Part shown: positions 30,868 to 63,495 of the stretch, in pieces
Position numbering within the stretch: the first letter of the stretch is position 1
How the letters are laid out: each line of letters starts with the position of its first letter
IMG/VR virus record: IMGVR_UViG_3300021171_000005
Coordinates: 29,866 to 93,865 of that record
Length of the DNA stretch: 64,000 bases
Reading direction: 5' to 3' (one strand)
Origin: a virus
Position numbers and translations under genes: made by a program
The notes under the pieces: generated by a model
The model's input: the letters and a program-made list of their open reading frames with translations, nothing else
What the model was told of the DNA's origin: nothing
Databases searched by the model: none

Positions 30868-30875
30868 GTCATCTC

Positions 30876-48599: not shown

Positions 48600-48699
48600 T
48601 GTGCAACTCCTAACTATTGCATATTATCATGCAACTGTATTGTTCCAGCTACTCAATTGAGATTTGCGAGGCCCGGTTCGGCCCCGCAATTCATCAATA

Positions 48700-49512: not shown

Positions 49513-49678
49513 AATTCTCCTTTAATTGTTTACATTAAACTAGTTTCTGAATTGCGGGGGCCGGATATGACTCTCGATAGGCTTTACGCTGAGTAGTTTT
49601 CCATCCGGCCAGAATGTGCCTATCCATCCCCGCAAACCTGTGATTAAATCATGTTCAAAGCATCTAGATTAACTAGGT

Positions 49679-50158
49679 TTACAGTTCATCAATCCAATCA
49701 ATTTTCGTTTCGTGAGCGCAGTAACCTCTGTGCCATATAGCGTTGTTGCAATTGTAGCAGAGAAGCCGGAAATCATCTTTCGGCCATCCTCGTTCTTTTA
49801 GCCATCGGCACATAGCGTTACCATCAAAACCGACGATTGCCCGGTGTTCCGCTCCGTTGTCGTTAGTATGATCAAGTGTCAAAAATTCGTACTCCGTAAC
49901 GTCACATCCGCCGGGACATTGGCACTTGTGACCATACGCATTAAGCATCTCAGAACGTAAACGAATGCTATAAGTCTTAAAACTATTCCTACAATTTTCA
50001 CACTGCGACCGGCCTTCGCGGGGTTTCTTCCCGCAGGCACACAAACCCTGTTCTCGAAACTTACGCGCTCTCTCGCGAGAATATACATTCTGCGGATCGT
50101 TCGATAGTTCCTTACGCTTTAATGGCCTTTTTAATACTTTCTTGGGCCGGTAAACCAT
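49679..50158 (-). CDS. HNH/EndoVII-like nuclease
   Basis: YG.KCQC...LTLDH.N.NG..HR...LLC.NCN. Confidence 0.75.
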   Translation of the reverse strand: MVYRPKKVLKRPLKRKELSNDPQNVYSRERARKFREQGLCACGKKPREGRSQCENCRNSFKTYSIRLRSEMLNAYGHKCQCPGGCDVTEYEFLTLDHTNDNGAEHRAIVGFDGNAMCRWLKERGWPKDDFRLLCYNCNNAIWHRGYCAHETKIDWIDEL

Positions 50159-50200
50159 TCAATCCAATAGTGACAGTCTGAGATGCAAGTCACTTTGAAT

Positions 50201-50229
50201 ATAATACTCAATTAATCCATCAATGTCAA
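50201..50229 (-). promoter_or_regulatory. Sigma70 promoter
   Basis: TTGACA-17-TATTAT; spacer shares ATGGATTAAT with the 45485 promoter. Confidence 0.7.
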
Positions 50230-50847
50230 GGATAAAATACAATAATTACGAGGCGGGGGTTGTCCGGATGTGGACAGGGAACCCCGCAAACCAAGAAGGG
50301 ACTTGTATTCCACAGGAGACACAACGTAACTTATCGGTCATAAATGGTTACTAAAGGACGACAGGCATCATTGGCCGATAGTTACGTATTGACTAAATGG
50401 TAAAATAAAAACACCGGGAGAACAGATGGCGAAACACCTCTAAAAGACTCGCATTACTATAGTAACTTCCGATAACAGGTACTTTGTTATCAGTGACTTA
50501 CGGGCACTGTACTTAGGTAACGTGTGTCTAGACTTTGGTACCTTTGAAGTAAACACGCCTCGCACCCAAAATGGGACCAGTGAGCAAAAGGGGCCAGAAA
50601 GTACTGAACGCCGTGGTTGACTATCTTTATTGGAGCGCTCAGCAGTGCCGGAACACTGACGAGCAGATTCCGATCAAGCTGGCGCTAGCTCTTTGCGGGG
50701 CGATTCGCCGAGGCGACCAACATCCGTTCGAATCGGCTTGCTACAATGCCTTTGGCGGGGCGCTAGAAAATTACACTCGAAAACGTTTAAAGGAGAAATT
50801 CCAACAAGCCTATGAACTCCGCAAATGTATACCTACGACCGTGCCCG

Positions 50848-51060
50848 ATGGGGGACGCGATATGGATACTTCGGCAAGCGAGAGGGTTGTCACAATGCGC
50901 TCTCGGCAAAAAGCTGCGAATGAAGAAAAACGGGGTGAGCAGACTGGAACGCGGGGAGCAGCGCTTAACATTGCGAATGCTCGTAAGGGTTAGCCGGGCG
51001 CTTCAGATTCCACCCCGCGTTTTGATTGAAGTAGCCGAAGCTCGTAAGTATCGAATGTGA
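50848..51060 (+). CDS. XRE/Cro-C1 HTH transcriptional regulator
   Basis: LRQARGLSQ..L.......VSRLERG...L....VSRAL; start may be 50812. Confidence 0.8.
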   Translation: MGDAIWILRQARGLSQCALGKKLRMKKNGVSRLERGEQRLTLRMLVRVSRALQIPPRVLIEVAEARKYRM

Positions 51061-51136
51061 GCAAAATTGAACAGAACAGCGGGCGGTCGGCTGTTGTATT
51101 CTTGTGAGCGAGAGAGGGCAGAGGGAGCTGTTCAGC

Positions 51137-51346
51137 ATGAACAATAACGACACTAGGCAGATTGCTCTGTCGATATTGGAAGGCCTACGCGATGACATTC
51201 TGACAGCGAGAACCCGCGATGGACACCGCATTTTGGACACCGCCGATTTTCGCCAGTACCTCACTGAGCAAATAAACCATATACGCGGCAACTCTCACTC
51301 AGAAGAATACCCAGACTCTTCCCCAGACCAATTAAAACGACCATAG
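51137..51346 (+). CDS. Hypothetical protein
   Basis: GGGAG RBS; ends before the terminator. Confidence 0.4.
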   Translation: MNNNDTRQIALSILEGLRDDILTARTRDGHRILDTADFRQYLTEQINHIRGNSHSEEYPDSSPDQLKRP

Positions 51347-51382
51347 AAAAAAGCCGCCGGAGAGGAGTATTCTTCGGCGGCT
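51347..51382. terminator. Rho-independent terminator between convergent genes
   Basis: AGCCGCCGGAGA/TCTTCGGCGGCT stem with an A6 tract (U-tract on the - strand). Confidence 0.7.
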
Positions 51383-51386
51383 CTGA

Positions 51387-51608
51387 TCATTTATCCTCCA
51401 AAGCTTTTAACCGTCGTTTCCACTTCAAAGCTCCCTTTTTATTCCCGTCTTCTAGCGCCCATTTTAAATGCAATTCACATCGTTCTCGAAGTGCGGTCTT
51501 ACGCTTTTCTGGCGCGATCTGATCAATCCTTATCAAGCCATCCCTGCTGAGATTCGTTCGCTTACCGAACTCAGCCCAATATTTTTCCCATTCTTCTTTC
51601 GTTGCCAT
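51387..51608 (-). CDS. Hypothetical protein
   Basis: MATKEEWEKYW... portion of the listed ORF. Confidence 0.45.
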   Translation of the reverse strand: MATKEEWEKYWAEFGKRTNLSRDGLIRIDQIAPEKRKTALRERCELHLKWALEDGNKKGALKWKRRLKALEDK

Positions 51609-51721
51609 AAGTCTTGCTGAAAAAACCCCCGCCAGAATTCTCCTCTGACGGGGCTCCCTAAGGATCGACAATGCCAATGCCGACCTAAACGGAGAATACC
51701 ATTGGCCGGGTCTCCCAGCAA

Positions 51722-52075
51722 CTAAACAGCTTTTTTCCGAACCTTGGCGGGCAGCCCCGCATAATCTGCCACGCCTATAAGAACATCCCCGATCTGATGC
51801 GCGATATACGAATTGAACATGATCGTCATCTGAACGTGATCCTTCGCCGATATCTGCATCAGTACTAATTCGCTGGAAACTACATCCACGTTTACATACG
51901 CTCCGTCGCCCAGCGACCACGAGTTCATTGGATTGATCATGGCCGGAACCTCGCGGGATATGATTCGTTCGGCGTCCATCACACAGGATATAGCTTTGTC
52001 GATAGCACCAATCTCCATGTATCCCACGACTGCCTGAAGAATGTTACGTAAAGCGTGCGCTTGCGATCTTCTCAT
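51722..52075 (-). CDS. Hypothetical protein
   Basis: GAGG RBS. Confidence 0.5.
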   Translation of the reverse strand: MRRSQAHALRNILQAVVGYMEIGAIDKAISCVMDAERIISREVPAMINPMNSWSLGDGAYVNVDVVSSELVLMQISAKDHVQMTIMFNSYIAHQIGDVLIGVADYAGLPAKVRKKAV

Positions 52076-52090
52076 CTTGCCTCACTAGAT

Positions 52091-52217
52091 GCGGGACCAT
52101 CCCAACGACTCTGAGAGGGGCGCGTCTAGGGGGTACAATCACTCTAGCATCGCGTGCGCACTAGTCGCGTCGCGGTGTTAGGGACTGCCTGACCCCTTGA
52201 CGGTCGGGTGGTCCCGC
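52091..52217 (-). ncRNA. Rod-shaped candidate ncRNA with a central bubble (6S-like shape)
   Basis: GCGGGACCA/TGGTCCCGC closing stem, nested stems with minus-strand wobbles, TACAAT upstream. Confidence 0.5.
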
Positions 52218-52272
52218 TTTTGAATTGTACTACTTTTGGCCTAGTCTGGTATACAGCGGATACCCTAGAGAT

Positions 52273-52698
52273 TTATTGCCTCGTCGCGGAAAAAGCGCCG
52301 TTCCTTGGGCCACATCCAGTGAGATTGCCCGCGCCTAGTTGTACAGTTCCGGACAAAGATTTCTGATCGCTCGATAGCGTTCCCGTAAAACTCTCCGCGC
52401 CATCCCCTGATACAACTTGGAACTGTTGCCCGCTGGTGAAATATCTCCCTGAGACTTGGGAATTAAATTGGCAAGATGGCGGAGTGGATATTGCGGAGCC
52501 CGTGACATTACCCGATCCATCTTCCGACAATACTAGTTTCAAATTACCGGTTACTACGGTGAAATTGAGGCCACCTGAGAATGTCCCAGTCATTGGCATT
52601 CCCGGCGGGGGTGGCGGAGGCGGCGGATTTCCGGAACTGCTCTTGGAATTACCGCACCCCGCAAGAAGCAATAGAAAACAAAAGGGGAGGTATTTCAT
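52273..52698 (-). CDS. Lipoprotein with poly-Pro linker
   Basis: Lipobox LLLAGC; PPPPPPP. Confidence 0.75.
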   Translation of the reverse strand: MKYLPFCFLLLLAGCGNSKSSSGNPPPPPPPPGMPMTGTFSGGLNFTVVTGNLKLVLSEDGSGNVTGSAISTPPSCQFNSQVSGRYFTSGQQFQVVSGDGAESFTGTLSSDQKSLSGTVQLGAGNLTGCGPRNGAFSATRQ

Positions 52699-53045
52699 TA
52701 TCTTGCTCCTGCCGATTTCTTGGGCACTTGTTTCAGCCCCGTAATTGGCGGGACATGCCCCACCGTCACATAATTGGTATCCTCCAATCGAAATGCTTTG
52801 ATCTCGAAGTCATTGAGTTTCAGTCTACGAAAATCCGACTGCAATGTCCGTTTGAAAGTTTGCAAAATCGTCTTCATCCCCGGTTTTGTGGATACAGGAA
52901 ACGAAACCTCAATGACTTCCTCTGGTTTGAGCCCATTACTGACCTTCGCCATTACATCGCGGTATTCCGCAAGTTGTAGTACAGTTGATCGGCGGCCTCG
53001 AATGCTGATGGCCGCATCTTCTTTTGTCGTTATTCTGACAGGCAT
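52698..53045 (-). CDS. Basic hypothetical protein, possibly DNA-binding
   Basis: GGAGG RBS; RGRRS; own promoter TTGACA-18-TAGATT (53069-53098). Confidence 0.55.
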   Translation of the reverse strand: MPVRITTKEDAAISIRGRRSTVLQLAEYRDVMAKVSNGLKPEEVIEVSFPVSTKPGMKTILQTFKRTLQSDFRRLKLNDFEIKAFRLEDTNYVTVGHVPPITGLKQVPKKSAGAR

Positions 53046-53114
53046 TTGTAATTCCTCCAATGCAGAGGAATCTACAATAACCTGACAATATTTGTCAAGT
53101 ACAAAATGAAGATT

Positions 53115-53447
53115 TTATGCGTTTCCAGACACCAGAGTCATAGTTTCTATGGGTACCACGGTAATGAGGATCACTTCTTTATCCTCAAAGATGTGATGCT
53201 CGACAATATAATCGGAGTTCTCTTCTAGTTTATGGAGATACATTTTAAGGACGGCTCTTTGGAAGGGAAGGAGGGGGTCCAAAGTAACCTCGATGATTTC
53301 AAACGGCGCTGCCGCGCCATCTTCTAGAATCTGGTTAAGTTCATGAATCTCAGGAATTGCAAGCAAAGTGGCCGGTACAGATGTACTGCTCATACTGCCT
53401 TCCCTTTCTTTCTCCCCTCTCAAAGGTGAGTGCATACTATCGAACAA
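53115..53447 (-). CDS. Hypothetical protein
   Basis: ORF; start probably at MSSTS. Confidence 0.4.
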   Translation of the reverse strand: MFDSMHSPLRGEKEREGSMSSTSVPATLLAIPEIHELNQILEDGAAAPFEIIEVTLDPLLPFQRAVLKMYLHKLEENSDYIVEHHIFEDKEVILITVVPIETMTLVSGNA

Positions 53448-53655
53448 ACACCCCGCAAGGGTAGGTTGCTTCGGTAATCAAAACGCCGTATTACCTTGCC
53501 GAGTGACGGTAATTTCGGCATGTAAATTGCCGCTTACAACATTTACAATTCTATTTGTCCACATCTGGACAACCCGCCTCGCATTTCCTACAGGAATAAT
53601 CATACAGTTTCGACTGTAGTAGTCAAGTATTATTTTTTCAAAATGAGACGATTTT

Positions 53656-55605
53656 TTAATGGGCATCAGACCAATTACTACCAGTCTTTGATTCTACCAA
53701 TATCGGCACTACGATGCCTTTCGTGACGGAAGTCTCCATGATTCGTTTAAGCTCGGCCAACGCCTCTTGTCCTTCTTTTGTAGGAGATACGGACCCCGCC
53801 AATTCATCATGCACCGTAAGGCTTAATTGCAAGGGCCGTCTTTCTGTAATCACCCCGGATTCCCACGCCTCAACCATCGCAGCCTTAGTCATGTCCGCTG
53901 AAGAACCTTGTGTATAGCGGTTCAGCGCCCGATGTAGCCCTGCGCGTTTAATATCACCGTAAGCTTCCAGCGCTTGTTTGTAAGGAAGTGCGAGTGTTTT
54001 GTAGCTGCCGGTTGCACTAGTTTTTGCTTCCCACAAATCAAATCTAGAGCGGCGGTTTAATACTGTTCTAATATACCCTTGCTTCTCCGCCTTCCTCATT
54101 GCTGCTTGCGATACTTCTTTAACGAAGGGAACATTCGTATGATATTGCTCCAACGTATCGTATGCTTCTTGCGTGGGCTCTCCTTGCTCGTCTACCATGC
54201 CCAATTCATTAGCTAATTTCTTAGCCCCCATGCTGAACGCCAAGCCAAAATTTATGTTTTTTGCTGCTTTGCGGGGCAATCCAGTTAGCTCGACCACCAT
54301 GTTATGAAAATCGACAGTCGCATCTTCCCTATACCTTTTGAGCGCTTCCGCCGCCCCGCTACATTTAGAAAGAACCGCAGCGTTAACGATCAGTCGGAAT
54401 TCTATTTGACTGTAGTCATTCGCAAAGAAGTCCTTACCTTCGTCGGGCAAGAACATGGAGCGCAGTAACGGGCCAAGCTCTGGATCGCGAGCTGGTATTT
54501 GCTGGAGGTTTGGCGTCGTACAACTGAAGCGCCCACTGACTGTACCTTTATTCCCATCCTCGTCGCTAGCCCGCCGTAAGGGATGAAATTGCGCGTGAAC
54601 TCGGCCATTGATGTTGTCTTCCAATATGTAGCTGCAAACAAAGGGATTACGAGCTTTCTCGTATTTGCGGGCTTCAAGAATTAGCTTAAATGCCTGATGC
54701 GTTTGTCGCTTCATCCATTGGTTCGTAAAGGATGGATTGCCTTTAGCCGTCTGCGGAAATGTGAGATTCAGCTTTTCACACATCTTTACGAGGTCGGCGG
54801 ACGCCGCAATATTTACCGGAAATCCGGCCATGTCTGCGAGTTGGGCCAACGCTTTATCTCGTTTTCCTGCGAGGACTCCATCAACCTCTTGTGCTTTATT
54901 TACGTCCACGCGAACACCCCGCATTCTCATGGAATTGAGCAGAGGAGTCAGGCGACATTCCAGATTGTAGAGGTCCAGCAATCCTTGCTCGGCCAGCTTC
55001 GCCTTCTGCTTTTCAAGGATTAGCGGGGGAAGATCAATATCTACTAAAGCGTACTCTGTGGCGTGTGCGGGATGGACTTCAGCGAAATGCTTCATTACAT
55101 CATCGCCATACAGTTCCGTTAGATACGTGCTCTTTTTGCCTCCGCCTAGATGCTTTTGTGCGAGACTTTCCAAGCTGTAGCTCATCGCTAATTCATCCAG
55201 CAATGGCTCCGCCCACTGTACGTCATGGAATTTGGCGCGTGGCGCGTGAATGCCATATTTGTTTAGGAAGAACATATCGAAAAGGTTTGAATTGGCCCCG
55301 ATAAGGTCGCCCTTGAAATCCTTCAGTTCAGTTTTAAGCCAGCGAACTACCTGCTGCTCCTCGCAGTTCATGCCTTGCTGGTGGCGAATCGGCCAATAGT
55401 CTCGCACGCCTGTATTGGTTTTTATTCCTACCCCTACAATGTAATCGCCCCGCAAAACATCGAAACCGGAAGTCTCAAGGTCCAAACTGACCCATTTACA
55501 TTGCGCTAGGGAAGGGAACTCAACAGGCGGGCGATATTCTACGGTCGTATACGTTGGAATGTGCCTGATCTTGAAGTCCGGAAACAGGAGTCCCGTATTA
55601 TCCAT
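53656..55605 (-). CDS. Family A DNA polymerase with 3'-5' exonuclease
   Basis: DLET; SGRFS...PNLQQIP; DYSQIEFR (motif A); R..AK..NFG (B); QGSSAD; VHDEL (C). Confidence 0.95.
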   Translation of the reverse strand: MDNTGLLFPDFKIRHIPTYTTVEYRPPVEFPSLAQCKWVSLDLETSGFDVLRGDYIVGVGIKTNTGVRDYWPIRHQQGMNCEEQQVVRWLKTELKDFKGDLIGANSNLFDMFFLNKYGIHAPRAKFHDVQWAEPLLDELAMSYSLESLAQKHLGGGKKSTYLTELYGDDVMKHFAEVHPAHATEYALVDIDLPPLILEKQKAKLAEQGLLDLYNLECRLTPLLNSMRMRGVRVDVNKAQEVDGVLAGKRDKALAQLADMAGFPVNIAASADLVKMCEKLNLTFPQTAKGNPSFTNQWMKRQTHQAFKLILEARKYEKARNPFVCSYILEDNINGRVHAQFHPLRRASDEDGNKGTVSGRFSCTTPNLQQIPARDPELGPLLRSMFLPDEGKDFFANDYSQIEFRLIVNAAVLSKCSGAAEALKRYREDATVDFHNMVVELTGLPRKAAKNINFGLAFSMGAKKLANELGMVDEQGEPTQEAYDTLEQYHTNVPFVKEVSQAAMRKAEKQGYIRTVLNRRSRFDLWEAKTSATGSYKTLALPYKQALEAYGDIKRAGLHRALNRYTQGSSADMTKAAMVEAWESGVITERRPLQLSLTVHDELAGSVSPTKEGQEALAELKRIMETSVTKGIVVPILVESKTGSNWSDAH

Positions 55606-55895
55606 TATTTGTCCGGATGTGGACTAGATTGCGGGCGTTTCGCTTGCTCCGCTTTGTCGCAGGCATCCGTCCATTCGATCTCCAATCCCGCATCTTCCAG
55701 ATAATACATATGCTCCGCATTGGTATGCCCGCAGGGTAGGATGCTAGCCATCATTTGAGACCAAGACATATTGCACCATTCTTTCACTCGGGCGGCCAGC
55801 TCAATAGCCATAGATTGGGCCACGGGAATGTTCTCAAATCCGTATTCCCGGAGGCAGTATTTTATAATATCGGCTATGGTCGGCGAATTGGCCAT
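55605..55895 (-). CDS. Hypothetical protein
   Basis: TAATG-coupled to the polymerase gene. Confidence 0.5.
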   Translation of the reverse strand: MANSPTIADIIKYCLREYGFENIPVAQSMAIELAARVKEWCNMSWSQMMASILPCGHTNAEHMYYLEDAGLEIEWTDACDKAEQAKRPQSSPHPDK

Positions 55896-56069
55896 TCTAT
55901 ATTGTTTGTCTGACTTAAACTAGTATTTTGCTGTAGCCATCGCCGTAAAGACGCAAAATCCAGCGGCGATGGGATGCTGAAGGTAGAAGAACACCCCCGC
56001 AGCAACTAGAAACATTCCCGGTACCAAAAGTAATCTAAGCTTTTCTTTCATATGGTTTAACTCCGCTGA

Positions 56070-56252
56070 TTAATCTAGTTTCTTGTAACTGTAAAATGTA
56101 ATTGGTTCTCCCGTCGGTTTTGGGAGCGGACGTTTTCGTGTAAACTCCAGTCGCTTTGTCCGAGACATCAACTGGTCATAATGCTCATCGTCCAAGTAGA
56201 TGATGTACTTGGACACAAGATCGAATATGAATTTGCCGATTGCTTTCTTCAT
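56070..56252 (-). CDS. Small hypothetical protein
   Basis: ORF in the small-gene array. Confidence 0.45.
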   Translation of the reverse strand: MKKAIGKFIFDLVSKYIIYLDDEHYDQLMSRTKRLEFTRKRPLPKPTGEPITFYSYKKLD

Positions 56253-56264
56253 TGAGTCTGCCGA

Positions 56265-56450
56265 TTAAACTAGTTTCGCCTCTGCCTCTTTTGCTCGCTT
56301 TGCCCAAGCGAGAATGACTCTGTGCTGCATTGCTTGCGCTTCCTTGACGAAGTAGACGCATCGCTTTGGGTCGCCAACGTACTCAGAGCCTCCCGGTGTC
56401 AGTGATTCAAGTGCTCGCATTGCTTCTTCATACTTGGCTTTGTAGTCCAA
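56265..56450 (-). CDS. Small phage protein (LTPGGSE motif)
   Basis: GGAGGGG RBS; ends in KLV inside the boundary motif. Confidence 0.5.
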   Translation of the reverse strand: MDYKAKYEEAMRALESLTPGGSEYVGDPKRCVYFVKEAQAMQHRVILAWAKRAKEAEAKLV

Positions 56451-56717
56451 TGATCCCCTCCCGACGTACTTAAATCATCTATTGTCTTTCTTGATCTATT
56501 TAGTTCCATTATTGAACTATTCTGACTTAGGCGGTTTATCGCCTAGTCCCTCATTAGGCGGATTTGCGCCTAAGAAAGTCCGTCGTCCCCGATTCCGAAA
56601 CACATACGCAGCGTAGGCTTCTGCGAATGTGTACTTGTCCTGCGGGTCCTGATTCGTCCAGAATTCTGCTTCGAACTCTTTCGCTGTCACAACTTCTCCA
56701 AACCCTGCTAAATCTTC

Positions 56718-56933: not shown

Positions 56934-57199
56934 TGTACTAAGCTCTTTTCTTCTTGCGGCGGCTTTTCCAGCTTCAAAACATTCGCCGTCCCGCCAATTG
57001 CGGGGATCAGAGTTGTGAATTCCACCTTAGTGATGATATGCGGTGGTGTTTCGGCACCAGCGGGCTTTCCAGATATGGATAAGCCCTTGGCAATCGCGCC
57101 GTCCTCGACTCGAACAACAACCGCGCAAATGTGATCGGACTTAACTGCTACGAGGTCGCCCGGTTTTAGCTCTGAACCAAGAAGATCAACAATTTTCAT
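56930..57199 (-). CDS. Small SH3-like hypothetical protein
   Basis: DLLG.EL..GD.VA motif. Confidence 0.5.
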   Translation of the reverse strand: MKIVDLLGSELKPGDLVAVKSDHICAVVVRVEDGAIAKGLSISGKPAGAETPPHIITKVEFTTLIPAIGGTANVLKLEKPPQEEKSLVQ

Positions 57200-57203
57200 T
57201 TAA

Positions 57204-57470
57204 TTAAGAACTCTCCATTCGATATGTAAATGCAGCCAACTCGTGCAGGAGGAACGAAATACTTTCATGTGTCAAACTGCATCTATCTGCAATTTTCCAC
57301 GCCCAGTCTAGAATCAATTGTTGTTCTTTCGGCGTAAACTTTCTCGGGATACTGCCATATACGCGGTCGCGCCACTCTTGTGGCAACGCAGATAAAGTAC
57401 ATACGCGATGATGAATACTTCCACAATCAGGACACGGCTCTTCGGGCAGTTCCATTTCGAATGTTGTCAT
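57204..57470 (-). CDS. Hypothetical protein
   Basis: CPDCG...C. Confidence 0.45.
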   Translation of the reverse strand: MTTFEMELPEEPCPDCGSIHHRVCTLSALPQEWRDRVYGSIPRKFTPKEQQLILDWAWKIADRCSLTHESISFLLHELAAFTYRMESS

Positions 57471-57486
57471 TAAGTTATATATTGTT

Positions 57487-57861
57487 CTAACTACTCAAAC
57501 TAGTTTCGAGTTCACTGATTGTCGCTTCCGTGCTGTCCACTTCCGGACAATCGGTAGGTTCGATTGTCGCCACGAATTCTGCGATTTGAGCACGAGTCCA
57601 TTCGTGTTGATCGTTGAGATGATAAATGATATGCAACGCTTTTGATTTATATACGTGGCACGCCGGGCAATTATGCTGCTGCTCGATCCAAGGCCAAATA
57701 TCATAAAGCTTGGAATAAGAAGCTTCAACTGTAACTTGAACACCTACAGTCTGCAATGCTCCTCCAAGCGCACAGGGGGCGTCCTTGGAATACATTGAAT
57801 CCGCCCCGAATCCCTGTGGTTTCATCATTCCGTTCATCAAGATTGCGTGTGACAGTTTCAT
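57487..57861 (-). CDS. Conserved phage protein (DUF6197-like)
   Basis: KLS.AI..G...CALG.A...LND...WTR.QIA. Confidence 0.6.
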   Translation of the reverse strand: MKLSHAILMNGMMKPQGFGADSMYSKDAPCALGGALQTVGVQVTVEASYSKLYDIWPWIEQQHNCPACHVYKSKALHIIYHLNDQHEWTRAQIAEFVATIEPTDCPEVDSTEATISELETSLSS

Positions 57862-57862
57862 G

Positions 57863-59551
57863 TTATCTCCTATTCGCTAATGCGCTATTGATACCGGGCA
57901 TGTTCGGCCCCGCATTTGGATTAACTCCATTGCCGGGCGGGAAAGCACTTCCTTTGTACGGTACTGTATTAACGAACTCATTGCCGGTCATTGAACCATT
58001 CGGCCAGCACGCGGCCACATGCTGCGCAATCGTACCGGGCAAACTCCAGCAATTCGTAAGACCGCCGCCAGTTGAATATACACCAAAATTACCGATATCT
58101 ACAACATTATTATCGAAATGAAAGTTGACATTCCCGGTAATCGGACCACCGGCATTGAGTATCCCATTGGCCATCGTAGCTGCTTTGTCCACAGCAGGAG
58201 TTAGCCAACCATCGTTTTGGAATACATTATTTGATACAGTAACGTCGTGATATGGTACTGTGCTATTTCCTCCTGCAAGGAGATTCGTAAACGATCCGCA
58301 CAGATAGCACGTTCCGTACTGCAAGTGATCGAATACATTGTCATGGATTGATTCATTGCCACAGGCAGCAGGCCACCCGCCCAAGTCGTTAGGACCGCAG
58401 CCAAGCTGTAAAGCCTGTCCTGCATACGAACTATAATTGAATCTAACCGTAACATTAGTGACCGCGCATATTGGGCAAACACTTCCACTTACTCCTGCCT
58501 GATTCTTTGGAGTTAGCAATATCGAAGCCCCGACTTGAGTAAAGCCCGCCCAATTATATTGTAGTCTGTTGCCTTGGATCAGAGCGCGATTAACATTCTT
58601 CATCTCGACATGATTCTTTACGATCCACGGATGCTTGATACCATCTTTTCCCGCCGTGCCTCCGTCGTATGTCGGGTCTTGAGGATTCCAAGATGTCGGT
58701 TTAAATATATCATTGTATTGAATTGTAACGTCGGGAGTTACGACAGTTGCGGGGCCTCCGCCAAAGATTACATTCTCGCCAGATGCTTCAAGGAAGTTGT
58801 TCTGAATCAAATAGTTACCGTCAGAACCGGTAGACAACCCACCAGAGATGGCTTGCGCATCCCCGCAACTCCCAGAAATCGCCCGGCAATGAAAATCAGA
58901 AAAATAGCTATTAATGACGGAAGAGTTGGGAGAGTTCGATAAATCAATGCCCCGCGTAGTTTCGTCGGTCGCCGTACCGTGGAACCAACAACGATCAACG
59001 ATAACAGTAGAGCCCAGATTGCGATACAGATTGTAAACAATCCCTGTACCAGATGTGCGCGTAACTTCCAATCCAATCAAACGGACAAACGATCCGCCGG
59101 TTAGCGAAGCGTTTTGGCCGTTGAGAATGATTGTCGGCATGAGTTTTGCCGCGCCGCTAGTTGGTTGGGCGTATGCCGGGCGATTGGGCAAAGAAACGAT
59201 CCCCGCAAATGCGGGAGAAACGCGGACATTCTCGCTTGGCAGTAAAGCCGAAGCAGTCTTAATTGTGATCCATTGCTGCGCCGTGCCATTCGGAAGAACC
59301 AATCCGCTTAATGTCGCAATGAATGCTGGATCAATAACAATTGTGTCGCCGGGTACGGCTGCGTTTAACACCGCCTGTAAGCTCGGCACATTGGCCGGAA
59401 CCAGAATCGGAAGGTTGTCGCTAGGCGTAAAGGATTGTCGGATTTCTGGAACCGACATAGGCAACTGAGCGGGGCCGTCGTATGTCTGTCCAGATGCGGA
59501 CAAAAACGCCCCGCAAATCAATATTGGCATTAGAACCTTGGGGAATTTCAT
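57863..59551 (-). CDS. Secreted right-handed beta-helix (polysaccharide lyase-like) protein
   Basis: Signal peptide; LQA.LNAA.PGDTI; IQNNFLEASGEN; KNHVEMKN; AGGAG RBS before ATG 59551. Confidence 0.7.
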   Translation of the reverse strand: MKFPKVLMPILICGAFLSASGQTYDGPAQLPMSVPEIRQSFTPSDNLPILVPANVPSLQAVLNAAVPGDTIVIDPAFIATLSGLVLPNGTAQQWITIKTASALLPSENVRVSPAFAGIVSLPNRPAYAQPTSGAAKLMPTIILNGQNASLTGGSFVRLIGLEVTRTSGTGIVYNLYRNLGSTVIVDRCWFHGTATDETTRGIDLSNSPNSSVINSYFSDFHCRAISGSCGDAQAISGGLSTGSDGNYLIQNNFLEASGENVIFGGGPATVVTPDVTIQYNDIFKPTSWNPQDPTYDGGTAGKDGIKHPWIVKNHVEMKNVNRALIQGNRLQYNWAGFTQVGASILLTPKNQAGVSGSVCPICAVTNVTVRFNYSSYAGQALQLGCGPNDLGGWPAACGNESIHDNVFDHLQYGTCYLCGSFTNLLAGGNSTVPYHDVTVSNNVFQNDGWLTPAVDKAATMANGILNAGGPITGNVNFHFDNNVVDIGNFGVYSTGGGLTNCWSLPGTIAQHVAACWPNGSMTGNEFVNTVPYKGSAFPPGNGVNPNAGPNMPGINSALANRR

Positions 59552-59997
59552 GTATCTCCTAGTATCCAAAAAAGCGTCCGTATTTATGTACGAGCCTCGC
59601 AACCTGATAGGCAACGTTGACAGCAAGGGCAAAAGCAGTTCCAATCATACAGATATTGTACTCTATTTCGTATTGCAATGTCTACACAAATAATCAGCAG
59701 CCCAAGCATACCATGTGTAAATGCTGACCGACCACGGCCATAAGAATAAACCATGTTTGCATATAATCGGTCTTGGTTTATGAAAATCCTTGCATTCCAC
59801 TGTAAGCTCCCGACTTTAGCGTGAAATCGCGGTTTCCAAATGCTCCAATAAGCCCGGAAAATCAGCGATATTGCCTTCAAATCCTATTACATCCGCGATC
59901 ATTCGGAGCTGGCCGCGCAATACCGCCAACTCAGACATAGCGTAAGCTTCTAGTAGTTGTGAAAGTTCGTCGTCTTTCGTCATGTCGTTACCTCTAT

Positions 59998-60465
59998 TTA
60001 AATGTCGCTATGGGATTCCTTGAGCGCACCCCGCGCAATCTCCATATCAGCCTTGAACGATGGAGCTTGTTCGTCACTAAAGTAAAACGGGTCGCATTCG
60101 ACTGCATAATTTACCCAGCCAATCATTTTTGCTAGCGCTTCATCTTTGGCGGCGAGCTGTTCGCTCAACTCTTCAATTTTCTGGTAATCGATTTCCGACT
60201 GAATCTCTAGTTGCTTAACATCTCGCTGGGCGGATTCGAGTTCCTGACGGAGTTTTTCAGCCAAATCTTGCCATGTTGTAAAGTGTTGCTCGGCTCCCGG
60301 CGTCTCTGGCCGAGGGGCGGGCGCGGTACGCTGTGCGTCGTTATGAAGGATTTGAACTTTCTCGCAGATACAGTTGCTTCCAGTGCGGCATCCCTCAATC
60401 CGATGATCGTGGAGCAGTTGACCAAGCTCGCTTAAGAAATGTGTTGTCGTCTCAGTTTCCGCCAT
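59998..60465 (-). CDS. Hypothetical coiled-coil protein
   Basis: ORF in the early-gene array. Confidence 0.5.
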   Translation of the reverse strand: MAETETTTHFLSELGQLLHDHRIEGCRTGSNCICEKVQILHNDAQRTAPAPRPETPGAEQHFTTWQDLAEKLRQELESAQRDVKQLEIQSEIDYQKIEELSEQLAAKDEALAKMIGWVNYAVECDPFYFSDEQAPSFKADMEIARGALKESHSDI

Positions 60466-60901
60466 TATTCGCCTCCGGCTCCGTGAGCCAATTCTGTATC
60501 TGCCTCAATCCGCGCTCCGTGCGCTGCTCTTGCGGGGTTGCTAAGTTTTTGTGGCAGCAAGAAAAATCGCAGCAACACTCGTTTGTCATTTCGTTGTGTA
60601 CTGAAATTCCCTGCATCCAAAGAGCAGTCTGCTTTACGAGAGATGCCACATACTCGGGTGTCCGATCTCCATTGCGGTCCCATGCACCTTGCATAATTCG
60701 TTCATTCCTGAACTGATCGTGATGCCAATTTTGGGGCGGCGCAGGCGAGGCGGGAGCGGCGTGCCACGGCGTATGCCACGGATGCGTGCACTCCTGTACT
60801 TCGCCCTCGAATTGCATCGCAGGATGCTTTCGCGGATCGGGACTGTCGCAACGCGGGCACCGCTGGGCCTCCCCGGAAGCGGCTGATTTATCAATTTTCA
60901 T
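60452..60901 (-). CDS. Cys/His-rich hypothetical protein
   Basis: CPRC.SP.P..HP...C.HPWH; W..G.S.HN...ECC.DFSCC. Confidence 0.55.
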   Translation of the reverse strand: MKIDKSAASGEAQRCPRCDSPDPRKHPAMQFEGEVQECTHPWHTPWHAAPASPAPPQNWHHDQFRNERIMQGAWDRNGDRTPEYVASLVKQTALWMQGISVHNEMTNECCCDFSCCHKNLATPQEQRTERGLRQIQNWLTEPEANNGGN

Positions 60902-60924
60902 AAGTCCTCAATTAATGTGTGCAA

Positions 60925-61134
60925 TTAAACTAGTTTCCCATCGGCCAGAATGCGGTTGAACTCGGCGTTGTCGTGCTTGCGGCGGTCGTATAGTTCAATG
61001 TCCCAGCCCTCTTGCACGCACAGGACGAACTCCTTCACGGTGACGCCGTGATCCAGAGCAGTTCGAATTGCGTCGGTCAGTTGGTCGCACATGTGGCTGT
61101 AAGCGTAATTCCCCATTCGGTCAGGCAGAGCCAT
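60925..61134 (-). CDS. Small hypothetical protein
   Basis: GGGGAAG RBS; ends in KLV. Confidence 0.5.
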   Translation of the reverse strand: MALPDRMGNYAYSHMCDQLTDAIRTALDHGVTVKEFVLCVQEGWDIELYDRRKHDNAEFNRILADGKLV

Positions 61135-61186
61135 ATCGTCTTCCCCTGCTTAAATTATGTGTTGTTCCGTTCACTTTGATTATGAT

Positions 61187-61438
61187 TTAATCCCCTACCG
61201 CCTCGTATGTCGCCTCGAAAATGTCTGGTTTGCAGGGGTAGAATTCACCTTTCACGCCCTTAATGATCCAATCAAGCGTGTCGGCTGTCATGCAACCTTC
61301 CAGCGTTTCGATGAACAGCTTCGCGCCAGAGTCACTGACATTGAACTTGCCCGGCATGAATTCTGCTATCTCGTATTCGTTGTTGCCGTCCCAACGGATC
61401 GCTTCAATGACTACTGGTTTCTTGCGAAACTTTGCCAT
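61187..61438 (-). CDS. Conserved phage protein (PGDYG-like)
   Basis: [11 protein letters not shown].....TLEG...[22 protein letters not shown]. Confidence 0.8.
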
Positions 61439-61455
61439 ATTTCCTCACTTCTAGT

Positions 61456-61713
61456 TTAATCAGACAACTCAATTGATGATTTAAGTGCGTTCGGATCGCG
61501 TTCCACCATGTAGCCCATGTCAGCAAGTTCGCGCAGAATCGCCTGTGCCTTGCATCGCTCGTCGCTCATTCCACAGCAGTAGTGGTCGCAAAACTTAGCC
61601 ATCAGAATGGCGTTTATCATCGCGTGCTCTATCTCGGGAACCTTCAAGCAGGCGTGTTTCTCAAATTCCCCGTCCGTTTCGGTCTTGAAATCGCATACCA
61701 CACAATGTTCCAT
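61456..61713 (-). CDS. Small Zn-binding hypothetical protein
   Basis: CVVC...H.C; GAGGGG RBS. Confidence 0.5.
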   Translation of the reverse strand: MEHCVVCDFKTETDGEFEKHACLKVPEIEHAMINAILMAKFCDHYCCGMSDERCKAQAILRELADMGYMVERDPNALKSSIELSD

Positions 61714-61720
61714 ATCCCCT

Positions 61721-61966
61721 CACTCAACACATGTCTACTGCCCTTTGCGGGGGCTTGGCGGAGGCGGCAAAGGCATCCAATGAGAAATAGAGCCATCTGA
61801 CCAGTGTGTATCAGACTCTGGTCTGCCGCTACGACTGTCGATGTTTACGAAGTTCTTGTTGCCTTCCATGTCATCGGTTACAAAAATCAGCACATCTCGC
61901 CCTATTTTTGGCAATTGGTCGGCAACGGAAATCCATTTCATAAATCCTCCACTCAACACATGTCTA
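61721..61966. repeat. Perfect 17-bp direct repeat CACTCAACACATGTCTA (61721-37, 61950-66) flanking one gene
   Basis: Read directly from the sequence. Confidence 0.9.
61735..61941 (-). CDS. DUF551-family protein
   Basis: MKWISV.D.LP...SHWMPLP.PP. Confidence 0.85.
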   Translation of the reverse strand: MKWISVADQLPKIGRDVLIFVTDDMEGNKNFVNIDSRSGRPESDTHWSDGSISHWMPLPPPPSPRKGQ

Positions 61967-61979
61967 AAGTTTGTGCCAA

Positions 61980-62492
61980 TTAAACTAGTTTCGCCCGTTT
62001 TTCCTTGAAACCACAGTTATCGCAGTCAATTTGGTCGGGGTTTGCCTGAAATACACAGCGATACTTGCTGTCACACTGAGGGCACGGCTCACAACCATAC
62101 ATGTTGGCCGTTGGGCTATTGTAGTCAATTACATTCGACGGTTTCATCTTTATTTGCGGGGCGCGGCTTTCCTTATTGAAATGCCATCCGTCTAGGCATA
62201 TGTCCTTCCCATTATGATATGCGGGATCAAGACTCAGGCGAATTGCGCGGCTTGTGCTACGGCAGCTTGGACACTCATATAGCGCTCTGATTTCTCTTTC
62301 AATTTGCGCAGCGTGCGGTTTGAGATACTTGTCTGTGAATTCTTCCAAGCTTCGCCGACGGTGATATTCGTCCCATATTATGTGGCAATCGCAGAGCATT
62401 CCTCCCTCGCTCTGCCTCCACGAACATTTAGGATCGTGCTCCTCTGTTTTGGTAAGCCGCATAAACTTCCAAGCATCGGGGAAATCCATCAT
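61980..62492 (-). CDS. Cys-rich hypothetical protein
   Basis: Multiple CxxC motifs; ends in KLV; start inferred from ATGA overlap. Confidence 0.5.
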   Translation of the reverse strand: MMDFPDAWKFMRLTKTEEHDPKCSWRQSEGGMLCDCHIIWDEYHRRRSLEEFTDKYLKPHAAQIEREIRALYECPSCRSTSRAIRLSLDPAYHNGKDICLDGWHFNKESRAPQIKMKPSNVIDYNSPTANMYGCEPCPQCDSKYRCVFQANPDQIDCDNCGFKEKRAKLV

Positions 62493-62698
62493 TGTATTTC
62501 GATGTCTCGCGGTACAAACCATTGCCCGACAATGCACGAATTGTGGCCGCTCAGATGATCCGCTGCCCGTACTTCGCCATTGCCGTATTCCACGGCATCG
62601 ATACGAATCCAATCGCCGTATCTGTCCTTTGCGTATACTGGCGTATTCTCAGCTATTGCGCGGCTGGCTTCTTCGAATGTATTCGTTAGCTTTGCCAT
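62489..62698 (-). CDS. Small hypothetical protein
   Basis: Downstream of TTGACA at 62729-34. Confidence 0.45.
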   Translation of the reverse strand: MAKLTNTFEEASRAIAENTPVYAKDRYGDWIRIDAVEYGNGEVRAADHLSGHNSCIVGQWFVPRDIEIQ

Positions 62699-62780
62699 AT
62701 GCGAATCATCCCACATATACGGGGCGATTGTCAAGCATTAATCCACAAATCTTTAGTAACCTTGTCCAGATACGGACAAC

Positions 62781-62957
62781 TCAGTTTATCGCTTCGTCCG
62801 CACTCAGGCGACGGCACCGAACCAATCCGCCATAATATCCGAAATCAATTACGCATACCGGATGTTTGCCGTGCTGGTATGGGCTATTCGGACAATCGTC
62901 GTCGTTTGTCTCGGGTGATAGTTCTTTACCACATGCGGGGCATGTAATGGGCTTCAT
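62781..62957 (-). CDS. 58-aa Zn-ribbon protein (MKPITCPACGKEL...)
   Basis: Translated by hand; fills the gap between two motifs. Confidence 0.45.
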   Translation of the reverse strand: MKPITCPACGKELSPETNDDDCPNSPYQHGKHPVCVIDFGYYGGLVRCRRLSADEAIN

Positions 62958-62994
62958 AGGTTAACTAATACATATATTGTCTAGGTAGATCAAA

Positions 62995-63495
62995 CTAGTT
63001 CGTCGAATCCGCATACCATGTTTGATGTTTTTCGGCAATATGCTCGTTGCCGTCGTATTCGTCAATCTCGTAATCCGTTCCGTCTGGAATTGTCACGATT
63101 GACAGTCGGGCATGAGCACCATTTGCCTTGTCGCCCAATTCTTCAACAACCTGAATCAGTTTAGGATCGTGGCGTTCGAGGCAGCGGCCATGATCGACAC
63201 TGTGACTATCCGCAGCGTCATTAGCTGCCTTACGCTCTTCAAATGTCATGTCGCCCCAGTTATCAGTGCGAGGCAAAACTTCGTTGGGGTTAGGGATGTC
63301 GTAAGCGTACCACACGAATGCTTTTTTTGCTTCCTCGACGGACACGGGTACAAGCGCGTGGGGGTCTAATCCGCCATCCGGCTTCCGCCCCATCACAAAG
63401 AAGTAGCATTCTCGGCCATTGAGTTCAGCAAGTCGCTTTGTCGCAAGCGGTGATAGACTGAACCCACCAAAACAGCTATTGATTACTACTTTCAT
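62995..63495 (-). CDS. Conserved phage protein
   Basis: KVVIN.CFGGFSLS...RHDP.LIQVVEELG...I.EYDG.E. Confidence 0.75.
   Translation of the reverse strand: MKVVINSCFGGFSLSPLATKRLAELNGRECYFFVMGRKPDGGLDPHALVPVSVEEAKKAFVWYAYDIPNPNEVLPRTDNWGDMTFEERKAANDAADSHSVDHGRCLERHDPKLIQVVEELGDKANGAHARLSIVTIPDGTDYEIDEYDGNEHIAEKHQTWYADSTN

Follow-up and report, generated by a model that had tools for sequence, protein, structure and literature searches.

A 33-bp lox-like repeat at the ends of small early genes of a soil phage coincides with breakpoints between related genomes

Results

The repeat and its position relative to genes

The window, a 64,000-nt stretch of DNA, corresponds to positions 29866-93865 of a 93.9-kb phage genome of soil origin. 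Its small early genes are punctuated by a palindrome, AAACTAGTTT, which is the top over-represented 10-mer genome-wide, with nine exact copies (18 against 0.27 expected when both strands are counted). Five of these lie in the window (49537, 56267, 57497, 60927 and 61982) where 0.07 are expected, and none of 100 shuffles held five, so the repeat first noticed in a sequence-only reading of this DNA is real. Single-mismatch copies are found at 55917, 56072 and 62992. Among the variants named in that reading, 56072 and the inverted copy at 61448 (plus strand, PWM score 23.9) are genuine, while the copy at 46920 is weak: it has two mismatches, and its PWM score here is below 8. Five further copies lie beyond the window, at genome positions 460, 1087, 3196, 3879 and 5338; four of them follow the local gene direction, and the ambiguous one, 5338, is inverted between two plus-strand genes. 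The copies sit on both divergent arms of small early genes and nowhere else.

The conserved unit is 33 bp long, not 13. It is an oriented, asymmetric, lox-like inverted repeat with a 13-7-13 geometry, in which the palindrome forms the strong arm. A 13-bp left arm (AAACTAGTTTAAT) is followed by a 7-nt spacer and then by a 13-bp right arm, which is degenerate and resembles the left arm's mirror, ATTAAACTAGTTT. When the 13 nt beginning 11 nt past the palindrome were scored as the right arm, the match to ATTAAACTAGTTT was 6.65 of 13 over 26 non-redundant sites (null 3.36, sd 1.59); adjacent offsets scored 4.6 and 4.7, so that the mirror match occurs at a single offset, and the same scoring found no partner arm upstream of the palindrome. 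PWM matches are likewise paired on the two strands 23 nt apart. Position 19 of the element is an invariant A. The spacers are specific to their positions and the same in genomes that differ by ~30%. The individual elements are listed in Table 1.

The element provides the stop codon of the upstream gene. Four ORFs end in KLV-TAA (the 61-aa ORF at 56265, the 69-aa ORF at 60925, the ORF ending at 61980 and a 30-aa ORF, MDRHILAGW...IQKLV), the TAG of the motif terminates the ORFs of 166 aa (62995) and 43 aa (55920), and a 124-aa ORF passes through it as ...ETSLSS, all as originally read; the view that it is a nucleic-acid signal rather than a peptide tag is thus supported. That an ORF ends at the motif is partly automatic, because two of the three motif frames hold a stop. 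The rule that copies always lie at a gene 3' end is nearly true, the exceptions being 5338, which has no upstream ORF, and 3196, where the stop comes just before the motif.

Table 1. Elements, the module missing from a relative and the recombinase gene (window coordinates).
Feature	Position	Strand	Description
Element	62969..63001	-	Left arm GAACTAGTTTGAT, spacer ctaccta, right arm GACAATATATGTA; TAG ends 166-aa ORF 62995-63495
Module, ~990 bp	61991..62981	-	Present in window, absent from L153; block ends 61990 and 62982; 58-aa ORF 62781-62957, internal sigma-70-like promoter 62734-62705, ORF ending KLV at 61980
Element	61959..61991	-	Left arm AAACTAGTTTAAT, spacer tggcaca(a), right arm (A)CTTTAGACATGTG; followed by 74-aa DUF551 gene 61735-61959
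Inverted copy	61448..61480	+	CTTCTAGTTT aat cagacaa CTCAATTGATGAT; between ORFs 61187-61438 and 61456-61713; identical in L153
Element	60904..60936	-	Left arm AAACTAGTTTAAT, spacer tgcacac, right arm ATTAATTGAGGAC; TAA ends 69-aa ORF 60925-61134
Element	57474..57506	-	Left arm AAACTAGTTTGAG, spacer tagttag, right arm AACAATATATAAC; 124-aa ORF 57487-57861 reads through
Degenerate element	56474..56506	-	Left arm GAACTAAATAGAT, spacer caagaaa, right arm GACAATAGATGAT; first anchor of PolA-adjacent array
Element	56244..56276	-	Left arm AAACTAGTTTAAT, spacer cggcaga, right arm CTCAATGAAGAAA; TAA ends 61-aa ORF 56265-56450
Element	56049..56081	-	Left arm AAACTAGATTAAT, spacer cagcgga, right arm GTTAAACCATATG; TAA ends 60-aa ORF 56070-56252; syntenic G001 copy (33150) has same spacer
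Element	55894..55926	-	Left arm ATACTAGTTTAAG, spacer tcagaca, right arm AACAATATAGAAT; TAG ends 43-aa ORF 55920-56051; 96-aa gene 55605-55895 begins within right arm
Element	49514..49546	-	Left arm AAACTAGTTTAAT, spacer gtaaaca, right arm ATTAAAGGAGAAT, which includes Shine-Dalgarno sequence of gene 49249-49512; ends 30-aa ORF 49535-49627
Decayed copy	48632..48664	-	AATCTCAATT gag tagctgg AACAATACAGTTG; PWM 12.4
Xer-like tyrosine recombinase, 293 aa	47718..48599	-	Intact; Phage_integrase domain, E 1.9e-17

Breakpoints between related genomes

Breakpoints were compared with four related sequences, three of them close kin. A relative with 78% PolA identity carries element copies at syntenic places with identical spacers. 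G000 and G001, whose conserved genes show a DNA identity of only ~70%, have five identical 7-nt spacers in common and a sixth pair matching at 6 of 7 positions; for spacers cgagcaa and gtactca the order is also kept on the rightward arm.

Unrelated genes meet precisely where the spacer gives way to the right arm in ~8 independent comparisons involving four genomes. These junctions include 62992 against L153, 57497 against L154, three sites against L153 (56497 at 12716, 56267 at 12473 and 55917 at 12264), 3879 against G001 42369, and 460 against 3196. A single CTTTAGACATGTG right arm with its DUF551 gene stands behind three different units of left arm plus spacer in the window, L153 and L154. 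In L153, the left arm and spacer of the 62992 element continue directly into the right arm of the 61982 element, the junction reading ctaccta followed by CTTTAGACATGTG; the ~990-bp insertion or deletion between the two sequences thus takes its flank and spacer from one site and its right arm from the other. Homology does not explain this event, because a crossover in the shared 9-nt AACTAGTTT would give the other spacer. At 57474..57506, L154 is common up to the spacer and continues with another right arm and gene, and upstream of this element identity between the window and L153 goes from 100% to ~65% within 50 nt. L153 matches 56474..56506 through the spacer, followed by GTTAACACATAAT and a different ORF. 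The left arm and spacer of 56244..56276 recur in L153 and L154, where the ORFs to either side are unrelated. Across the array upstream of PolA, the spacer order caagaaa, cggcaga, cagcgga, tcagRca is common to four genomes, L153 and G001 each being without one member, and the ORFs between the spacers are unrelated in all four.

The alignment of relatives proposed in the sequence-only reading places gain and loss breakpoints at the element, at one fixed position, in line with its idea of a joint where one-gene modules are gained, lost or replaced. The same joints appear in contigs from four other soil samples (56273->56470, 57200->57482 and 61970->63511), with a loose end at 56251. Some junctions fall off the boundary, either after position 15-16 (56072 against G001 33150, 1087 against G001 41430) or after the Shine-Dalgarno sequence (3196 against G001 41940), and about half of the breakpoints of the window against L153 and L154 lie outside elements (51381/51619, ~58800, 59682/59816, 60032).

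The recombinase gene

The gene at 47718-48599 encodes the only tyrosine recombinase of the genome, in which no serine recombinase was found. It is intact and has a promoter-like site of its own (TTGACA-17-TAGGAT, 48728-48700), as had been proposed. Its assignment as the enzyme of the array is not supported: its score of 21 bits is far below the integron-integrase cut-offs (265 and 435), the G001 copy is frameshifted near residue 205, and its family (40-54% identity, contigs of ~93-96 kb) also occurs in G002, G003 and G004, where neither the motif nor any repeated lox-like inverted repeat was found. No result ties the recombinase to the sites, for which it is the obvious candidate enzyme, but by guess.

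Discussion

Since gene swaps between related phages, involving unrelated genes, fall at one fixed point within the element, the repeat appears to mark joints of cassette exchange, which partly supports the earlier cassette interpretation. The best reading of these sequences, tentative and given slightly less than an even chance, is a site-specific exchange resembling the pdif modules of Acinetobacter or integrons. Small early genes would be exchanged at the element between co-infecting relatives. A recombinase bound to the arms would make its cuts at a border of the 7-bp spacer, recombination would take place between sites of two genomes that have a common spacer, and the module between differently spaced sites could be replaced without loss of its neighbours, as under the pdif rule. 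Rare events between unlike spacers would yield precise deletions or insertions. The modules lack a promoter at the joint and would depend for their transcription on sigma-70-type early promoters lying upstream, as integron cassettes depend on Pc. A recombinase arm binds a monomer, and a perfect 10-bp palindrome is unusual there and typical of the site of a dimeric regulator; the palindrome in the left arm thus counts against the recombinase-arm reading. Homologous recombination across the 20 nt common to both sites would account equally well for exchange at same-spacer anchors, and the phage has genes for RecA and an ERF-type annealing protein.

In pdif modules of Acinetobacter plasmids, which are served by XerC/XerD, many short arm-spacer-arm sites per replicon likewise bound small gene modules; the spacers vary among sites, sites with matching spacers recombine, and replacement of modules takes place between sites that share a spacer (PMC13141974), much as spacer order is kept here in four genomes while the genes between are replaced. 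However, pdif sites are 28 bp long (11-6-11), with known XerC and XerD arms and alternating orientation (C and D modules) (PMC13141974), whereas the present sites are 33 bp long, unrelated in sequence, all direct within an arm and overlapping stop codons in early operons of a lytic-looking phage, with a recombinase that is only a candidate. Integrons share with this array single promoterless ORFs in one orientation, each followed by a recombination-type site overlapping the gene end, as well as array content that varies among close relatives, crossover at one fixed bond and the joining of unlike sites. The analogy with attC drawn in the earlier reading fails on anatomy: attC is 57-141 bp long and recognised as a folded single strand with extrahelical bases. 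IntI has a characteristic extra domain, and no attI or Pc platform adjoins the recombinase gene here. The shufflon site sfx, used by Rci, is similarly asymmetric, pairing a conserved with a variable arm around a 7-bp core, and occurs in many copies at the 3' ends of coding segments (PMC11852207). In contrast, sfx sites are inverted and Rci carries out inversions only, whereas the present sites are direct within each arm and it is whole genes rather than C-terminal exons that are exchanged here. Rci also has an extra C-terminal domain (~384 aa, against 293 aa for the present recombinase).

The main alternative, somewhat less likely, is regulatory: a dimeric phage or host protein would bind the palindrome and a weaker site 23 bp away, the two forming either an operator pair or a portion of a non-canonical promoter that times or damps each small early gene, with recombination as a by-product. 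Read in this way, the 13-7-13 geometry is a pair of operators spaced by 23 bp: a second, related 10-mer starts 23 nt on from the perfect 10-bp palindrome of the left arm. The element occurs only on early arms and is oriented with transcription, the copies inverted relative to genes (61448 and genome 5338) fit DNA-level recognition, and the decayed copy lies between the promoter and the start codon of the recombinase gene. nAnnAT at positions 18-23 (11 of 28 sites) is a -10-like word, with the invariant A in the place of A-11, and RecA and ERF could serve the recombination. A precedent exists in the PeSLs of T4-type phages, short repeated intergenic cassettes of hyperplastic early regions, which also include the stop codon of the preceding gene and the start region of the following one, and which delimit insertions, deletions and replacements among close relatives; they consist of a consensus sigma-70 promoter and a G+C-rich stem-loop and are exchanged via homologous recombination (PMC2839356, PMC4122927).

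The present element differs from PeSLs in its 13-7-13 geometry, in having neither promoter consensus nor G+C-rich stem-loop, and in having a fixed breakpoint and at least one junction, that in L153, off shared homology. Neither a -35 nor a -10 is conserved in a usable register. If the palindrome served as -35, the predicted transcript would in many cases begin past the next gene's Shine-Dalgarno sequence or its start codon (at 49537 these lie at positions 15-20 and 25; at 55917 the ATG is at 22), and with TAGTTT as -10, TTGACA is matched at 4 of 6 positions or better at only 5 of 26 sites, against 11% of random positions. No sigma factor gene was found in the genome and an HTH protein was recognised in 0 of 30 early proteins; the search for a T7-like RNA polymerase was also blank, as it was in control genomes, and so carries little weight. 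The spacer between operators or promoter hexamers need not keep its sequence, yet the position-specific spacers are identical across ~30% divergence.

It is improbable that the element acts at the RNA level, with GAAACUAGUUUAAU and the following A/U-rich tract as a processing, termination-reinitiation or translation-enhancer signal between cistrons of a polycistronic early mRNA. Most copies are co-oriented with genes, the upstream stop codon is inside the motif, the next start codons cluster at positions 19-27 past the palindrome (often within ...ATRATTTAATG, whose ATG is at 27), and a Shine-Dalgarno sequence is missing from many of the genes that follow. However, a perfect palindrome without a stable hairpin (the stem is three A-U pairs) is meaningless in RNA, two good copies are inverted (61448 and genome 5338), three (460, 5338 and G001 45658) have no ORF within 70 nt downstream, and the distance from palindrome to start codon varies from 11 to 50 nt while that to the right arm is fixed; an Rfam search matched no family.

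Still a little less probable is a phage nuclease that reads the palindrome and cuts ~10 nt away, repair from a co-infecting genome converting the adjacent gene in the manner of T4's free-standing homing endonucleases: the breakpoint does lie at a fixed distance from the palindrome, and the rightward early arm ends with the gene (genome 5866-6282) of a 138-aa T5orf172/MUG113 (GIY-YIG-like) protein, which belongs to a superfamily whose enzymes cut away from the bound sequence (I-TevI), but this protein has no recognisable DNA-binding domain, the dyad symmetry and the position-specific conserved spacers are left unexplained, and homing-nuclease tracts have one fixed and one ragged end, whereas the modules here are often precise at both.

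Anatomy of the repeated element

The palindrome AAACTAGTTT, which the sequence-only reading had singled out as repeated, occurs in five exact copies in the window against 0.07 expected, a number reached in none of 100 shuffles. It is the top over-represented 10-mer of the whole phage record (G000, to which 'genome' positions refer), with nine exact copies; copies with one mismatch lie at 55917, 56072 and 62992, and five additional copies lie beyond the window (genome 460, 1087, 3196, 3879 and 5338). Among the variants proposed earlier, the inverted copy at 61448 was recovered and the one at 46920 is present but weak. The flanks give every copy a direction, and four of the five out-of-window copies follow the local genes (minus in the leftward arm, plus in the rightward arm). 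Within one arm all copies are direct, except those at 61448 and at genome 5338, the latter being inverted between two plus-strand genes. The ORF ends ascribed to the motif were all confirmed: KLV-TAA closes four ORFs, TAG closes two, and one ORF reads through (ETSLSS). Only one of the motif's three frames is free of stops, so that an ORF entering it usually ends there, and frame agreement is no evidence for a protein-end signal.

The 13-nt motif previously taken as the unit is real, but an alignment of 26 non-redundant copies from four genomes and a dyad test show that the conserved unit is larger, at 33 bp. The palindrome is followed on its 3' side by A/G-A-T/G, seven variable bases, a box (TTAAT, ACAAT or CTTTAG) and an invariant A at 19 nt. 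The right arm, the 13 nt that begin 11 nt after the palindrome, matches ATTAAACTAGTTT, the mirror of the left arm AAACTAGTTTAAT, at a mean of 6.65 of 13 positions, compared with 3.36 (s.d. 1.59) for random 13-mers; 16 of the 26 sites have at least seven matches, against a chance rate of 0.029. Shifting the offset by a single base in either direction lowers this mean to 4.6 and 4.7, complementarity of the arms peaks sharply at a 7-nt spacer only, and the same dyad test revealed no partner arm 5' of the palindrome. This sharp peak defines the element as an imperfect inverted repeat in which a 7-nt spacer separates a strong from a weak arm, each of 13 bp. A PWM scan added decayed copies, such as those at 56497 and 48655, along with many in the relative G001, which carries the element on both early arms and shares odd variants with our phage at matching places (ATACTAGTTT, and the mirrored AATCTAGTTT versus AAACTAGATT here).

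Genome layout and relatives

The record, of soil metagenome origin, is 93,865 bp long (the window being bases 29866-93865). Its virion genes lie on the plus strand up to about 29.5 kb of the window, and genes beyond are on the minus strand (Table). The minus-strand early arm extends past the record end into genome 1-1400, G001 is unbroken across the corresponding point, and a second early arm, on the plus strand, starts at about genome 1800. A member of the Acidobacteriota may be the host, which we give as a lead only. At 30487-31358, on the minus strand, a protein with a dATP/dGTP diphosphohydrolase N-terminal domain (PF18909, E 1e-24) adjoins a nucleoside 2-deoxyribosyltransferase-like protein, a pair which hints that the phage alters the nucleotide pool or its DNA bases.

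A megablast of the region against the phage collection gave no match, and the closest PolA there is 41% identical. A large protein database holds PolA relatives of 93-71% identity on contigs of about 95 kb, among them P0003-P0008 (76-71%, up to 98 kb). The comparison set consisted of four sequences, of which G001, L153 and L154 came from scans with a PolA alignment; the same scan of genome contigs found no relative. An exact-pattern scan of viral contigs with a 14-mer gave single, chance-like matches only, and the pattern 13+N7+RTTAA gave seven, the kin among them being G001 and one fragment (G006) with a single copy at its end. A full-text literature search with the 10-mer returned only unrelated primers and sequences.

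Coordinates and composition of the compared sequences, arrays, joints and neighbouring features (window positions unless marked)
Feature	Position	Observation	Junction
G001		96,206 bp; PolA 78%	
L153		19.3-kb contig, 18.5 kb of it used; PolA 100% (tblastn)	
L154		11.3 kb; PolA 93%	
Minus-strand block		RecA, clamp-like protein, primase-helicase, SSB, ERF, RNA ligase, tyrosine recombinase, PolA, then numerous tiny ORFs	
Window array	between 57-aa and 96-aa genes	four elements; spacers caagaaa, cggcaga, cagcgga, tcagaca	
L154 array		the same four spacers except the last, tcaggca	
L153 array		caagaaa, cggcaga, tcaggca	
G001 array		taagaag, caagaaa, cagcgga, tcaggca	
Joint versus L153	62992 and 61982	61991-62981 absent in L153; 62992 flank and spacer (gat ctaccta) fused to 61982 right arm (CTTTAGACATGTG)	
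Joint in window, L153, L154	61982	three left-arm-plus-spacer units (tggcaca(a), ctaccta, ctgcata) precede one common right arm and 74-aa DUF551 gene	spacer/right arm
Joint versus L154	57497	upstream gene, arm and spacer (tagttag) common; right arm and gene differ	spacer/right arm
Joint versus L153	56497	same up to and including spacer caagaaa, divergent after	spacer/right arm
Joint in window, L153, L154	56267	arm and spacer (cggcaga) common; ORFs on either side unrelated	spacer/right arm
Further pairs	genome 3879 vs G001 42369; genome 460 vs 3196; 55917 vs L153 12264	identity stops at final spacer base	spacer/right arm
Breakpoints away from elements	51.4-51.6 kb	237-291-bp indel	
	59.7-59.8 kb	promoter swap	
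		switches within 593-aa gene; junction within 155-aa gene	
Tyrosine recombinase	47718-48599 (-)	293 aa	
Recombinase homologue in G001 (L160)	G001 25265-26120	frameshift near residue 205	
159-aa gene	49679-50158 (-)	G001 homologue at 32439-32837	
593-aa ORF	57863-59644 (-)	beta-helix-like	
Diphosphohydrolase-domain protein	30487-31358 (-)	PF18909	
138-aa gene	genome 5866-6282 (+), L008:2031-2447	outside window	
TGTCC-N6-GGACA (examples)	57540-57555; genome ~3910-3925	16-bp palindrome	

Gene replacement at the spacer/right-arm boundary

As read from aligned relatives, the element marks cassette joints. The window and L153 share long blocks of 99-100% identity, broken by replaced or missing segments. 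Junctions were read directly from the alignments, in gene orientation, since the right arms fall into similar families and an automatic junction caller overshot. In six of seven independent pairs with identical arm and spacer and different downstream DNA, the first right-arm base is the first difference; at 56267 the upstream ORFs, too, diverge as far as the outer edge of the left arm. The loss or gain of the module between 62992 and 61982 was not driven by homology, because a crossover in the shared AACTAGTTT would have brought the other spacer. Site-specific exchange of this module would give the circle joint ...AAACTAGTTTAATTGGCACA(A) followed directly by GACAATATATGTA... The same joints recur in contigs from four other soil samples (56273 to 56470, 57200 to 57482 and 61970 to 63511, with a loose end at 56251), a kind of evidence that cannot show transcript ends or circles. 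The expectation that breakpoints of gene gain and loss would fall at the motif holds in part: many lie at the spacer/right-arm boundary, but about half of those that separate the window from L153 or L154 lie away from any element. Some junctions at elements fall after position 15-16 or after the Shine-Dalgarno sequence.

The segment of about 237-291 bp at 51363-51655 is missing from L153 and L154, as well as from contigs of three additional soil samples; it has a 33-nt inverted match at its edge and a terminator-like hairpin (51653-51627), and may be a small insertion. In soil sample X4, one low-depth contig joins 61167 to 47508 via 17 other letters, which look like a left arm in decay (on the gene strand, ACTAAATTAAT); the recombinase region may lie elsewhere in the array of that strain.

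Spacers are retained at syntenic sites

The arrays beside PolA consist of single ORFs in one orientation. The set of ORFs varies among the four genomes, exchange taking place at the sites, and the ORFs between array elements (43-120 aa) have no detectable similarity in any genome pair. Syntenic sites nevertheless retain identical spacers with modules replaced between them; the junctions at 61982 and 62992, however, join unlike spacers. The rightward arms of G000 and G001 both carry cgagcaa and then gtactca. Altogether these two phages have five identical 7-nt spacers and a sixth pair alike at 6 of 7 positions, despite conserved genes that are only about 70% identical in DNA, indicating that the spacers are not free to drift.

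The copies at genome 460 (-) and 3196 (+) have the same left arm and spacer (20 nt, cgagcaa), inverted around the divergent early control region, and the copy with the gagcgag spacer is in the leftward arm here (1087, -) and in the rightward arm of G001 (41430, +). The sequences may reflect inversion or relocation between the early arms. In our phage, about 3.5 kb separate PolA from a 159-aa gene further downstream. The G001 homologue of this gene (54% identity) is found immediately upstream of PolA, after the last array element; the differing positions indicate that the gene was relocated relative to PolA.

Regulatory readings of the element

Site-specific exchange is the best-supported mechanism for these joints, and we favour it tentatively. 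Its main rival, which we consider rather unlikely, is a regulatory cassette at which recombination is incidental. With its perfect 10-bp palindrome, the strong arm looks more like a target of a dimeric DNA-binding protein than of a recombinase monomer, and a pair of operators spaced 23 bp apart is an equally good reading of the two arms. The promoter-early stem-loop cassettes (PeSLs) of T4-type phages, moreover, have a stop codon inside the repeat and populate hyperplastic early regions with insertions and deletions at the repeats (PMC2839356); the present element likewise bounds insertions, deletions and replacements in a hyperplastic early region. However, the PeSL hallmarks, a consensus sigma-70 promoter and a stem-loop, are absent here, and on sequence grounds we find no workable register for a promoter reading.

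A sigma-70 promoter scan flagged no element, and perfect TTGACA-17-TATAAT promoters are found elsewhere in the same region. With TAGTTT taken as -10, there is no -35 upstream: a hexamer that matches TTGACA at 4 of 6 positions or better is present at 5 of 26 sites, versus 11% of random positions. The -10-like word nAnnAT is found at positions 18-23 in 11 of 28 sites; with this word as -10 and the palindrome as -35, the start would at many sites come after the downstream gene's Shine-Dalgarno sequence or start codon. Sigma-54-like, ECF-like and Bacteroidota-like promoters fit few sites only, by eye. No terminator-like site overlaps an element, and the palindrome alone could form at most three A-T pairs around a 4-nt loop. 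Searches of the other early arm for Rfam families and tRNAs, and of the phage for Sigma70_r2 and Sigma70_r4_2, gave no match, and no HTH protein was recognised among 30 early proteins; the search for a T7-type RNA_pol was also blank, which carries little weight since control genomes were blank as well. The 593-aa ORF was considered as an RNA polymerase and rejected, as it is a beta-helix-like protein.

This ORF has the look of a right-handed beta-helix, and its nearest Atlas clusters are mostly from Acidobacteriota. Positions 57550-58800 are just 50-70% identical to L153, compared with 92-100% in the flanks; the gene is hypervariable, with perhaps a role in host range.

Comparison with known systems

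The geometry of the element fits the simple core sites of tyrosine recombinases (lox, FRT and sfx type), in which a 6-8-bp spacer is flanked by inverted arms of about 11-13 bp each. In such sites the strands cross over inside the spacer or at its edge, and the junctions of the six pairs fall at that edge. In shufflon sfx sites the arms are asymmetric around a 7-bp core and one arm is variable (PMC11852207), a variable arm that the weak right arm here resembles. The closest system in logic is that of the pdif modules of Acinetobacter plasmids, where many Xer-type sites of 28 bp (XerC arm, 6-bp spacer, XerD arm) vary in their spacers, matching spacers recombine and modules are replaced between same-spacer sites (PMC13141974). 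Our element differs from pdif in its 13-7-13 layout and its arm sequences, and also in orientation, which alternates in pdif (C and D modules) and is direct within an arm here, apart from the two inverted copies. The likeness to integron attC sites suggested by the sequence-only reading extends to the variable one-orientation array of single ORFs with exchange at the sites, but fails on integrase type, as IntI has an additional domain and the phage recombinase is not of the IntI type, and on attC anatomy, a 57-141-bp imperfect inverted repeat (R''-L''...L'-R') used as a folded strand, compared with 33 bp and a 7-nt spacer here.

The fullest form of the site-specific reading, possible but doubtful in our judgement, is that a virulent-type soil phage has its own cassette system, in which heterospecific lox-like 13-7-13 sites with differing 7-bp spacers as slot addresses would let a phage Xer-like recombinase swap single host-takeover genes between co-infecting relatives and leave the array unscrambled. 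Such a system would be recombinase-mediated cassette exchange in natural form, and phages would have their own equivalent of integrons and pdif modules. To our knowledge, apart from 'illegitimate recombination plus selection' and T4-type PeSLs, little is understood of how phages turn over their small early genes, anti-defence and host-takeover genes among them. The present case offers joints resolved to the nucleotide, the geometry of a recombinase site and position-specific spacers unchanged across diverged genomes. If the exchange is enzymatic, a phage-borne cassette system with slot addressing would open a new route by which accessory genes spread and might supply orthogonal recombination sites to engineers; should the element be a regulatory cassette, PeSL-type modular shuffling would reach an unrelated soil phage lineage by means of a very different element.

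Candidate enzymes

The tyrosine recombinase gene beside the array is intact, as reported earlier, and encodes a Xer-like protein; as for the claimed lack of an arm-binding domain, what can be said is that the domain match is confined to the catalytic domain. The protein falls below every NCBIfam cut-off, scoring 21.2 and 20.8 bits with the integron integrase models (cut-offs 265 and 435), over residues 107-158 only. It is the sole recombinase in the genome, and a search there for a serine recombinase (resolvase-family gene) found none. Its family, at 40-54% identity on contigs of about 93-96 kb from a wider clade, is distributed more widely than the motif: the carriers G002, G003 and G004 are devoid of the motif and of any repeated lox-like inverted repeat. 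In G001 the frameshifted homologue is 62% and 50% identical on either side of the frameshift, and is either a pseudogene or an assembly error. The earlier proposal linking the enzyme to the motif is not supported, and given the family's presence in motif-less relatives and this frameshift we regard it as a candidate, nothing more.

Sites of hix and gix type cross over at a central TA. A serine invertase of this type was rejected, as the genome has no resolvase-family gene and the junctions lie away from the palindrome centre. Ends of the IS200/IS605 type were rejected too, given neither a long subterminal hairpin nor a conserved target tetranucleotide at the junction.

The rightward early arm ends, just past the element at genome 5338, with a gene for a 138-aa protein that has T5orf172/MUG113 (GIY-YIG-like) domains. 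The palindrome TGTCC-N6-GGACA is also among the top over-represented words in G001 and the more distant G004; its conservation hence reaches further than that of the AAACTAGTTT element, and it goes along with the recombinase family.
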